Positions 27,190 through 30,128 of a stretch of DNA of 64,000 nt are shown in pieces (position 1 is the stretch's first letter; each line of letters begins with the position of its first letter). Location of the stretch: the NCBI RefSeq assembly GCF_050320075.1, contig NZ_CP190018.1, one strand, 5' to 3'. Under the pieces are notes generated by a model. That model made no database searches. It saw only the letters and a program-made list of their open reading frames with translations, and was not told the origin of the DNA. The position numbers and the translations under genes were made by a program. This DNA is from Escherichia coli (GTDB lineage Bacteria; Pseudomonadota; Gammaproteobacteria; Enterobacterales; Enterobacteriaceae).

Positions 27190-28806
27190 ATGCTCAGTCA
27201 AATTCAACGCTTTGGCGGCGCGATGTTCACGCCAGTGCTGCTGTTTCCCTTCGCCGGGATTGTGGTGGGTCTTGCCATCTTGCTGCAAAACCCGATGTTT
27301 GTCGGGGAATCACTGACCGATCCGAACAGTTTATTCGCGCAAATCGTACACATTATTGAAGAGGGCGGTTGGACGGTATTCCGTAATATGCCGCTGATTT
27401 TTGCTGTCGGTTTACCCATTGGCCTTGCGAAGCAAGCGCAGGGGCGTGCTTGTCTGGCGGTGATGGTGAGTTTCCTGACCTGGAACTATTTCATCAACGC
27501 GATGGGAATGACCTGGGGAAGCTACTTCGGCGTCGATTTCACTCAGGACGCGGTGGCAGGTAGCGGGCTGACAATGATGGCGGGGATTAAAACCCTCGAT
27601 ACCAGCATTATCGGCGCGATTATAATTTCCGGCATTGTGACGGCGCTGCATAACCGTCTGTTCGATAAAAAACTGCCGGTGTTTCTCGGCATTTTCCAGG
27701 GGACATCTTATGTGGTGATTATCGCCTTCCTGGTGATGATCCCCTGCGCCTGGCTGACGTTGCTCGGCTGGCCAAAAGTACAAATGGGGATTGAATCTCT
27801 GCAAGCGTTCCTGCGTTCGGCGGGTGCGCTTGGGGTCTGGGTTTACACCTTCCTCGAACGTATTCTGATCCCAACCGGTTTACACCACTTCATCTACGGA
27901 CCGTTTATCTTTGGTCCGGCAGCTGTTGAAGGCGGCATTCAGATGTACTGGGCGCAGCATCTGCAAGAGTTCAGTCTGAGCGCCGAGCCGCTGAAATCGT
28001 TGTTCCCGGAAGGCGGTTTTGCCCTGCACGGTAACTCAAAAATCTTTGGTGCCGTGGGCATTTCTTTAGCGATGTACTTCACTGCCGCACCGGAAAATCG
28101 GGTAAAAGTGGCGGGCTTGCTGATTCCCGCAACCTTAACCGCCATGCTGGTGGGAATTACCGAACCGCTGGAATTTACCTTCCTGTTCATTTCACCGTTG
28201 CTGTTTGCGGTACACGCTGTGCTTGCGGCCTCAATGTCGACCGTGATGTACCTCTTTGGTGTGGTGGGCAACATGGGCGGTGGTTTGATTGACCAGGTTT
28301 TACCGCAAAACTGGATCCCGATGTTCAGCAACCACGCGGATATGATGCTGACCCAAATCGCCATTGGGTTGTGCTTTACCCTGCTGTACTTCGTGGTTTT
28401 CCGCACCCTGATTCTGCAATTCAACATGTGCACGCCGGGACGTGAAGATGCGGAAGTGAAACTCTACTCAAAAGCCGAATACAAAGCCTCGCGAGGCCAA
28501 ACCACCGCGGCAGAGCCAAAAAAAGAGCTGGATCAGGCTGCCGGTATCCTGCAAGCCCTGGGCGGGGTCGGCAATATCTCCAGCATTAACAATTGCGCGA
28601 CGCGTCTACGGATTGCACTGCATGACATGTCACAAACGCTGGATGACGAAGTCTTTAAAAAGCTGGGAGCGCACGGCGTCTTCCGTAGTGGCGATGCCAT
28701 TCAGGTGATCATTGGTCTGCATGTATCCCAGCTACGTGAACAGCTCGATAGCTTAATTAATTCTCATCAATCAGCAGAAAATGTTGCCATTACGGAGGCA
28801 GTATAA
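27190..28806 (+). CDS. glvC: PTS alpha-glucoside-family EIICB component (GlvC-like), apparently intact
   Basis: 538 aa from [37 protein letters not shown] upstream; EIIC membrane domain plus C-terminal EIIB (NCATRLR) in one continuous frame. Confidence 0.85.
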
Positions 28807-30128
28807 TGACCAAATTCTCAGTGGTTGTCGCAGGCGGTGGAAGCACCTTTACGCCAGGCATCGTGTTGATGCTCCTGGCGAATCAGGACCGTTTCCCGCT
28901 TCGTGCACTGAAATTTTATGATAACGATGGTGCGCGGCAGGAAGTGATTGCTGAAGCCTGTAAAGTCATCCTTAAAGAGAGAGCGCCGGACATTGCGTTT
29001 AGTTACACCACCGATCCTGAAGTGGCGTTCAGCGACGTTGATTTTGTCATGGCGCACATCCGCGTCGGCAAATACCCGATGCGCGAACTGGATGAAAAAA
29101 TCCCGCTGCGCCACGGCGTTGTTGGACAGGAAACTTGCGGACCCGGCGGAATAGCGTACGGCATGCGTTCCATTGGCGGCGTCCTGGAACTGGTGGATTA
29201 TATGGAAAAATATTCACCAAATGCCTGGATGCTCAACTACTCCAACCCGGCAGCCATTGTCGCAGAAGCCACGCGTCGTCTGCGCCCGAATGCGAAAATC
29301 CTCAACATCTGTGACATGCCAATCGGTATTGAAAGCCGGATGGCGCAAATTGTTGGGCTGCAAGATCGCAAACAGATGCGCGTGCGCTACTACGGCCTGA
29401 ACCACTTTGGCTGGTGGACATCAATTGAAGATTTGCAGGGCAACGACCTGATGCCCCAGCTGCGGCAATATGTCTCGAAGCACGGTTATGTTCCACCGCA
29501 GCAAGATACACATACTGAAGCGAGCTGGAACGACACCTATGCAAAAGCGCGGGATGTCCAGGCACTGGACCCGGATACATTGCCGAACACCTATCTGAAA
29601 TATTATCTCTTCCCGGATTATGTCGTTCAGCATTCCAACCCTGAACATACCCGCGCGAATGAGGTGATGGAGCATCGCGAGAAACAGGTTTTCGATGCTT
29701 GCCGCGCCATTACGGCGGCAGGAAATTCAGCGGCGGGCAAGCTGGAAATTGACGAACATGCGTCATACATCGTCGATCTGGCGGCGGCAATTGCCTTCAA
29801 CACTCAGGAGCGGATGTTGCTGATTGTGCCTAACAACGGGGCAATCCATAACTTTGATGATGAAGCGATGGTCGAGATCCCGTGTCTGGTCGGGCACAAC
29901 GGACCAGAACCACTGGTGGTCGGCGATATCCCGCAGTTTCAGAAAGGGTTAATGAGTCAGCAAGTGGCGGTGGAAAAACTGGTCGTGGACGCCTGGGAAC
30001 AGCGTTCATATCAGCACCTGTGGCAGGCGATTACTTTGTCGAAAACGGTACCGAGCGCCGCGGTCGCCAAAGCTATTCTGGATGATTTGCTGGAGGCCAA
30101 CAAAGCGTACTGGCCAGAGTTACGTTAA
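28806..30128 (+). CDS. glvA: 6-phospho-alpha-glucosidase (GH4 family, GlvA-like)
   Basis: 440 aa [24 protein letters not shown] (NAD-binding Rossmann, GH4 hallmarks); overlaps the glvC stop. Confidence 0.85.

Follow-up and report, generated by a model that had tools for sequence, protein, structure and literature searches.

We identified an uninterrupted glv locus in a 64,000-nucleotide stretch of the Escherichia coli contig NZ_CP190018.1 (assembly GCF_050320075.1), hereafter the window. The locus consists of glvC, which encodes a phosphotransferase system (PTS) EIICB protein, glvA, which encodes a GH4 glucosidase, and the divergently transcribed regulator gene yidP. It lies in the order ibpB-yidE-yidP-glvC-glvA-yidL-yidK-yidJ, as in E. 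coli K-12 (Table 1). A first-pass annotation of the same DNA had described two intact frames here, for a 538-amino acid (aa) EIICB and a 440-aa GH4 protein, and both the table of open reading frames and the raw sequence agree with it; the translational coupling that it proposed fits the one-base overlap between the glvC stop codon and the glvA start codon. The mechanical list of open reading frames prolongs the glvC frame to a GTG at 26983. The ATG given in Table 1 is the start in the RefSeq annotation of strain CFSAN061763 (raw-milk cheese, Egypt), whose genome is 99.98-99.99% identical to the window without being the same sequence, and the N-terminal start of GlvC, ATGCTCAGTCAA, is invariant across the 24 genera and species aligned. 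The RefSeq coordinates of the window glvC correspond to protein WP_000952127.1. We interpret the locus, with a probability of about 80%, as the intact ancestral glv operon of E. coli, orthologous to aglA/aglB of Klebsiella pneumoniae and accompanied by the divergent GntR-family gene yidP.

Table 1. Features of the glv locus, in window coordinates (position 1 is the first nucleotide of the window).
Feature	Coordinates	Strand	Description
yidP	26179..26895	-	Divergent GntR/HutC-family regulator, 238 aa; PF00392 and PF07702 (UTRA)
Palindrome TGTCTAC-N12-GTAGA	27014..27039		Candidate YidP operator (predicted); TGTCTA...AAAAGTAGAC kept across genera
CRP-like site CATGA-N6-TCACG	27061..27076		Predicted; inside the most conserved block, AAAACCATGAA.GCGATCACGAA
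Candidate -10 hexamer TATCCT	27117..27122	+	Predicted; TAt.CT kept across genera
glvC ribosome-binding site AAGAGGA	27176..27182	+	tGAGGA 7-8 nt ahead of the ATG in all aligned genera
glvC	27190..28806	+	ATG to TAA, 538 aa, uninterrupted EIICB; aglA orthologue
Codon 238 of glvC	27901..27903	+	CCG (Pro) here; CAG (Gln) in K-12 and in the majority of sampled strains with the glvG deletion
Codon 369 of glvC	28294..28296	+	CAG (Gln) here; TAG amber in K-12 (Q369*), which splits glvC/glvB
GGAGG before glvA	28794-28798	+	7 nt 5' of the glvA ATG
TAATG stop/start overlap	28804..28808	+	TAA 28804-28806 and ATG 28806-28808, one base in common
glvA	28806..30128	+	ATG to TAA, 440 aa, uninterrupted GH4; aglB orthologue
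Segment deleted from K-12 glvG	29407..29914	+	508 bp, retained in the window
yidL	30125..31048	-	Convergent AraC-family regulator adjoining glvA; a neighbour whose membership in the system is not established

GlvC matches the profile for alpha-glucoside PTS IIBC proteins, TIGR02005, with 959.2 bits (cut-off 607.3, E = 4e-289), and its residues 2-523 align with profile positions 1-524. The EIIC domain (PF02378, residues 10-346) is followed in a single chain by the EIIB domain (PF00367, residues 453-482). No EIIA domain was among the families reported for GlvC, and the locus itself encodes no EIIA. Members of the Glc family carry a phosphorylatable cysteine in an EIIB loop (C-[AI]-T-R-L-R) and a GITE motif in EIIC. 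GlvC has GITEP at residue 322 and Cys469 within NNCATRLR, both of which align with the motifs of PtsG, and the protein also matches PtsG structures. E. coli PtsG (EIICB-Glc) and MalX resemble GlvC in belonging to the PTS Glc superfamily and in having GITE and the EIIB cysteine loop, but GlvC passes the alpha-glucoside subfamily model and falls well under the cut-offs of the PtsG and MalX models (316 against 592 and 277 against 632, respectively), so that neither identity was retained. Identity as an N-acetylglucosamine PTS was likewise rejected, the score being below that model's cut-off. RefSeq names the intact 538-aa protein 'PTS sugar transporter subunit IIB', which under-describes it. This name probably traces to the equivalog NF007255, a model of 161 positions that covers residues 378-538 and corresponds to the GlvB fragment of K-12; the TIGR02005 name, alpha-glucoside PTS IIBC, fits GlvC better.

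The GH4 domains PF02056 (222.6 bits) and PF11975 (190.1 bits) were both identified in GlvA. The protein matches the structure of the K. pneumoniae 6-phospho-alpha-glucosidase (6DUX) with 918 bits (E = 8e-276) and that of Bacillus subtilis GlvA (1U8X) with 751 bits (E = 4e-225). A GH4 6-phospho-beta-glucosidase gave a far weaker match (1S6Y, 211 bits) and the alpha-galactosidase model scored 179 against a cut-off of 486; both of these identities were rejected. In B. subtilis GlvA, from which the window numbering is offset by -2, we take GXGS to bind NAD+, Cys171 and His202 to be Mn2+ ligands, and Asp172 and Tyr265 to be catalytic. The window protein has GGGS at residues 10-13, Cys169, Asp170, His200 and Tyr263.

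Relatives of GlvC were found at 79 loci in a scan of representative genomes of other genera and species. The E. albertii relative is 94% identical over a match that ends at the contig end, and relatives at 70-85% identity occur in Citrobacter, Kluyvera, Klebsiella, Enterobacter, Serratia, Aeromonas, Proteus and Pantoea. A GH4 gene lies directly 3' of the glvC relative in 79 of 79 loci, and a divergent YidP homologue lies 5' of it in 76, the remaining three being without upstream flank. Most Enterobacteriaceae loci keep yidE, and the one-base geometry of the glvC/glvA overlap is found in most enterobacterial loci. The GC content of the operon (52-55%) is the same as that of the neighbouring genes. 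This ordinary composition, together with the yidE-yidP-glvC-glvA synteny conserved across Enterobacteriaceae, led us to reject horizontal acquisition and indicates that the operon was vertically inherited and is orthologous to aglA/aglB.

GlvC and GlvA are 81% and 90% identical, respectively, to the AglA and AglB orthologues of K. pneumoniae ATCC 13883. The aglA/aglB system (6DUX/6DVV) has the same EIICB-then-GH4 order and one-base overlap as glvCA, and it also contains no EIIA. Five other Klebsiella loci share the divergent GntR regulator and the yidE neighbour; the upstream flank of the K. pneumoniae locus itself is too short to show either. The E. coli operon is a species orthologue that differs from aglA/aglB in its diverged 5' untranslated region (UTR) and in one diverged operator arm. 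With the aglA/aglB genes, E. coli K-12 can utilize isomaltose and other alpha-glucosides via its endogenous Crr, and with B. subtilis glvA/glvC E. coli grows in a crr-dependent manner on isomaltose, on panose and on sugar alcohols (PMC5309279). The B. subtilis glvA-glvR-glvC operon (malA-glvR-malP) shares with the window locus the GlvA fold family, the residues checked above and an EIICB without EIIA. The glucosidase gene comes first in the B. subtilis operon, and its regulator, GlvR, is of the RpiR type; E. coli glv, in contrast, has a divergent GntR/HutC regulator and places the EIICB gene before the GH4 gene.

The K-12 counterpart, glvC-glvB-glvG ('cryptic arbutin-like PTS'), occupies the same position between yidP and yidL at about 98.7% nucleotide identity. 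In MG1655 it is annotated as glvC (b3683, 1107 bp), glvB (b3682, 486 bp) and the pseudogene glvG (b4556). The first-pass annotation had described a split EIIC/EIIB and a broken glucosidase in K-12, and base-by-base comparison traces these to Q369* and to a 508-bp deletion in glvG. K-12 further differs by P238Q; the window carries none of these changes, and its glvC and glvA frames are uninterrupted in the alignment to K-12. Pro238 of the window GlvC aligns with the proline of HHIWNVPF in PtsG. The 508-bp segment is bounded by an 8-bp direct repeat, GAACCACT (29399-29406 and 29907-29914). Its deletion in K-12 is frameshifting, begins directly after His200 and removes approximately residues 201-370, including Tyr263. 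PMC5309279, which cites Pikis 2006, Thompson 2001 and Reizer 1994, treats the K-12 glv homologues as truncated or cryptic, and we find that this cryptic state is the product of two separate lesions, a widespread 508-bp microhomology deletion in glvG and an amber codon in glvC that is far less common in its exact K-12 form.

The distribution of these lesions was assessed in 5426 complete E. coli genomes, to which all population counts refer. The glv locus is present in 4284 of them. The segment 29420-29890, which lies within the stretch deleted from K-12, is present in 1652 (1649 at a coverage of at least 80%), and the K-12-type glvG deletion is accordingly placed in about 2600 genomes (4267 - 1649 = 2618); all of the glvG-deletion matches listed have the same 2593-bp span. 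The exact K-12 amber 61-mer occurs in 348 genomes, and two CAG haplotype 61-mers occur in 3223 and 485. These three haplotype 61-mers were queried one by one, as a single 61-mer from the window is unusable: two linked synonymous single-nucleotide polymorphisms put K-12 and most intact alleles at 95-99% identity. Given that the two lesions differ greatly in distribution, K-12 is a poor reference for the glv locus.

We read the state of both genes in 15 sampled genomes, nine with full-length glvA and six with the glvG deletion. In eight of the nine (CFSAN061763, O157:H7 3384, ST540, 7/2, M114, FDAARGOS_1282, M12 and M37H) both genes are unflagged and GlvC is identical to WP_000952127.1; the ninth, AR_0085, carries W109*. 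In ST540 and AR_0085, an IS200/IS605 tnpA remnant and TnpB/InsQ replace yidL-yidK-yidJ-yidI just 3' of glvA, and in genome H50 a TnpB is annotated inside the glvA region. Genomes that lack yidP-glvCA have yidE directly adjoining yidL. In a previous study, glvC figures in the list of functions that phylogroup B2 lacks (Touchon et al. 2009, PMC2617782), and the glucosidase is mentioned as an accessory gene in a pan-genome paper. The first-pass annotation had implied that an intact glv locus is unusual. This view did not survive the survey, since full-length glvA is found in about 30% of complete genomes, both genes are intact in most of the full-length genomes sampled, and annotations of them already exist in RefSeq. 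An intact glvCA in this strain is thus ordinary and already known, its proteins being present in RefSeq with stable accessions and its Klebsiella and Bacillus counterparts characterized in both biochemistry and structure.

Comparison of intact alleles revealed 18-28 synonymous and no non-synonymous differences in glvC, that is, a ratio of non-synonymous to synonymous divergence (dN/dS) of 0 at dS values of 0.048-0.076. The dN/dS of glvA among intact alleles is 0.05-0.11, and its variable positions (43, 59, 156, 190, 217, 255, 306, 404, 419 and 427) include no motif or catalytic residue. These alleles bear on the possibility that the operon is in frame yet crippled by a lineage-specific missense or regulatory lesion, as a young pseudogene without a stop. 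Such a lesion might be sought in the window GlvA, which is 3-5 residues away from other intact E. coli alleles, or in YidP, which is WP_001309076.1 and not the commoner WP_001300779.1. However, O157:H7 3384, ST540, 7/2, M114, M12 and M37H encode exactly the same GlvC, every motif and catalytic residue checked is present and is avoided by the variable GlvA positions, and the same YidP allele accompanies intact genes in strain M114. We therefore regard a hidden lesion of this kind as very improbable.

All six sampled glvG-deleted genomes carry a substitution or stop in GlvC (P238Q, G167D, G39R and Q369*). In glvC, 48 synonymous sites and 1 non-synonymous site segregate in the group whose glvA is intact, versus 18 and 4 in the glvG-deleted group (Fisher p = 0.03, in a small sample). 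A larger share of non-synonymous sites in the latter is expected if GlvC serves a purpose only when GlvA is present, and the pattern suggests that the transporter decays after loss of its hydrolase. Most glvG-deleted genomes, as represented by the loci sampled, keep a full-length glvC.

The yidP-glvC intergenic region was examined in a cross-genus alignment of 24 sequences. Its conserved blocks (27011-27160 in the window) reach as far as Aeromonas and Proteus. The palindrome, TGTCTA...TAGAC in the cross-genus consensus, is covered by an inverted repeat at 27011-27044, and its half-sites are of the type used by HutC-type GntR regulators. YidP combines a helix-turn-helix with a UTRA domain, divergent linkage and this conserved palindrome as candidate operator, as do GntR/HutC repressors of adjacent operons, and by these features it is probably the repressor of glvCA. 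The centre of the CRP-like site lies about 60.5 nt 5' of the putative transcription start, which is a class-I position. A block ATGAA.GCGATCACGAA is conserved across genera in this region. The 5' UTR contains a hairpin, AGGCC...GGCCT, followed by CCCTAC..GTTGT, and both are conserved across genera. A search of 26000-31500 against Rfam at E <= 1 gave no match, so the hairpin is not explained by a known leader RNA. E. coli as a whole departs from the consensus in the CCCTAC..GTTGT block, and K-12 has a T-to-G change in the left arm of the palindrome.

By analogy with AglA/AglB and with B. subtilis GlvC/GlvA, we propose that the EIIC domain of GlvC would import an alpha-linked glucoside, with isomaltose, isomers of sucrose (for example palatinose and turanose), maltitol and methyl-alpha-glucoside as candidate substrates. 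Phosphoryl groups would pass from phosphoenolpyruvate through EI, HPr and EIIA-Glc (Crr) to Cys469 of GlvC; Crr is the likely supplier because the locus encodes no EIIA. Cys469 would phosphorylate the sugar at O-6, giving an alpha-glucoside 6-phosphate, and GlvA, predicted to depend on NAD+ and Mn2+, would cleave this 6-phospho-alpha-glucoside to glucose-6-phosphate and the aglycone. YidP may repress the operon through the conserved palindrome, and the CRP-like site, about 61 nt 5' of the start, may put its expression under catabolite control. Judged from their sequences, GlvC and GlvA are very probably functional. The suggestion of the first-pass annotation that this strain has a functional alpha-glucoside PTS holds up as a prediction, consistent with the motif and catalytic residues, the 81% and 90% identity to the orthologues, the purifying selection and the conserved regulatory region.

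Several observations weigh against a working operon, and most of them bear on the main rival, namely that glvCA is intact but silent, with too little transcription or induction under everyday conditions, like the bgl, asc and chb beta-glucoside operons of E. coli, and that the strain is alpha-glucoside-negative unless a regulatory mutation arises. We found no consensus sigma-70 promoter in a scan of 26800-30400, which would be explained by an activator-dependent promoter with a class-I CRP-like site. The right arm of the E. coli palindrome reads GTAGATC against the consensus GTAGAC, and the 5' UTR deviates from consensus too. With about 45% GC, the yidP-glvC intergenic region is A/T-rich; it contains A7 and T8 tracts and a further segment that is specific to E. 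coli. The crr gene is located outside the window. Classical identification tables score E. coli as negative for acid from alpha-methyl-D-glucoside; this, if right, would point to weak expression or induction in routine testing. The type strain of E. coli, which may or may not carry the locus, gave negative results with palatinose, turanose, maltitol and alpha-methyl-glucoside (PMC4334874). The searchable literature yielded no measurements of growth, transport or enzyme activity on this strain or on a native E. coli glv operon with both genes intact. A silent operon is, however, hard to reconcile with a glvC dN/dS of 0 at dS 0.05-0.076 and an identical GlvC in eight diverged genomes, with constraint on glvC that appears relaxed after glvG loss, and with the conservation of the CRP-like site, the -10 element and the ribosome-binding site. 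These selection patterns imply that in nature the operon is both expressed and kept under selection. We thus consider silence unlikely, though less so than a hidden lesion, and favor the intact ancestral glv operon orthologous to aglA/aglB.

Downstream of the operon, the stop codons of glvA (+) and yidL (-) overlap at 30125-30128, leaving no room for an intergenic terminator, and a scan found no terminator-like site at the glvA/yidL junction. In other genera, yidL is present only in some.

Elsewhere in the window, an insert of about 3.3 kb with low GC content (33-40%) lies between ilvN and uhpA (40500-43825) and is absent from K-12. It contains two long open reading frames, 40752-42047 (431 aa) and 42302-43792 (496 aa), which are annotated as hypothetical proteins in CFSAN061763 and gave no Pfam and no PADLOC match. 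An IS1 copy with InsA and InsB domains (43826-44593, minus strand) is located just 5' of uhpA, with a 9-bp flanking overlap that corresponds to the target duplication. CFSAN061763, which is otherwise 99.98% identical, lacks this IS1; the insertion is therefore recent and might affect uhpA expression. A gene for a ShET2/EspL2-family type III effector or enterotoxin is found between tnaC and mnmE (approximately 1-2603), where K-12 has no counterpart. A RelE/ParE-family toxin and a helix-turn-helix antitoxin, absent from K-12, lie between yicN and nepI (approximately 53700-54540). The window ends within iatC, a giant inverse-autotransporter adhesin gene (from approximately 55240 to 64000 and past the window end) whose tandem repeats, each about 291 bp long, share 83-87% identity; K-12 has yicS-nlpA-side sequence at this place.

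We tentatively propose, as an idea somewhat more likely to fail than to hold, that glv is a three-state polymorphism in E. coli (intact; glvG-deleted with glvC decay; and yidP-glvCA absent, as reported for B2) in which the intact state opens a growth niche and glvC on its own is a liability. If this is true, about one strain in four, the sampled O157:H7 among them, would grow on isomaltose, on isomers of sucrose such as isomaltulose (palatinose) and on maltitol, a niche that textbooks deny to E. coli and one made up of sugars that are now common in processed food. A glvC without glvA would be a liability because non-cleavable phospho-alpha-glucosides would accumulate, and this would account for the surplus of amino-acid and nonsense changes in the sampled deletion genomes. 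Differences between strains in the use of alpha-1,6 glucosides and sucrose isomers, a capacity for which Bacillus genes have been imported into K-12 (PMC5309279), could matter for industrial feedstocks and for diet-dependent competition in the gut.

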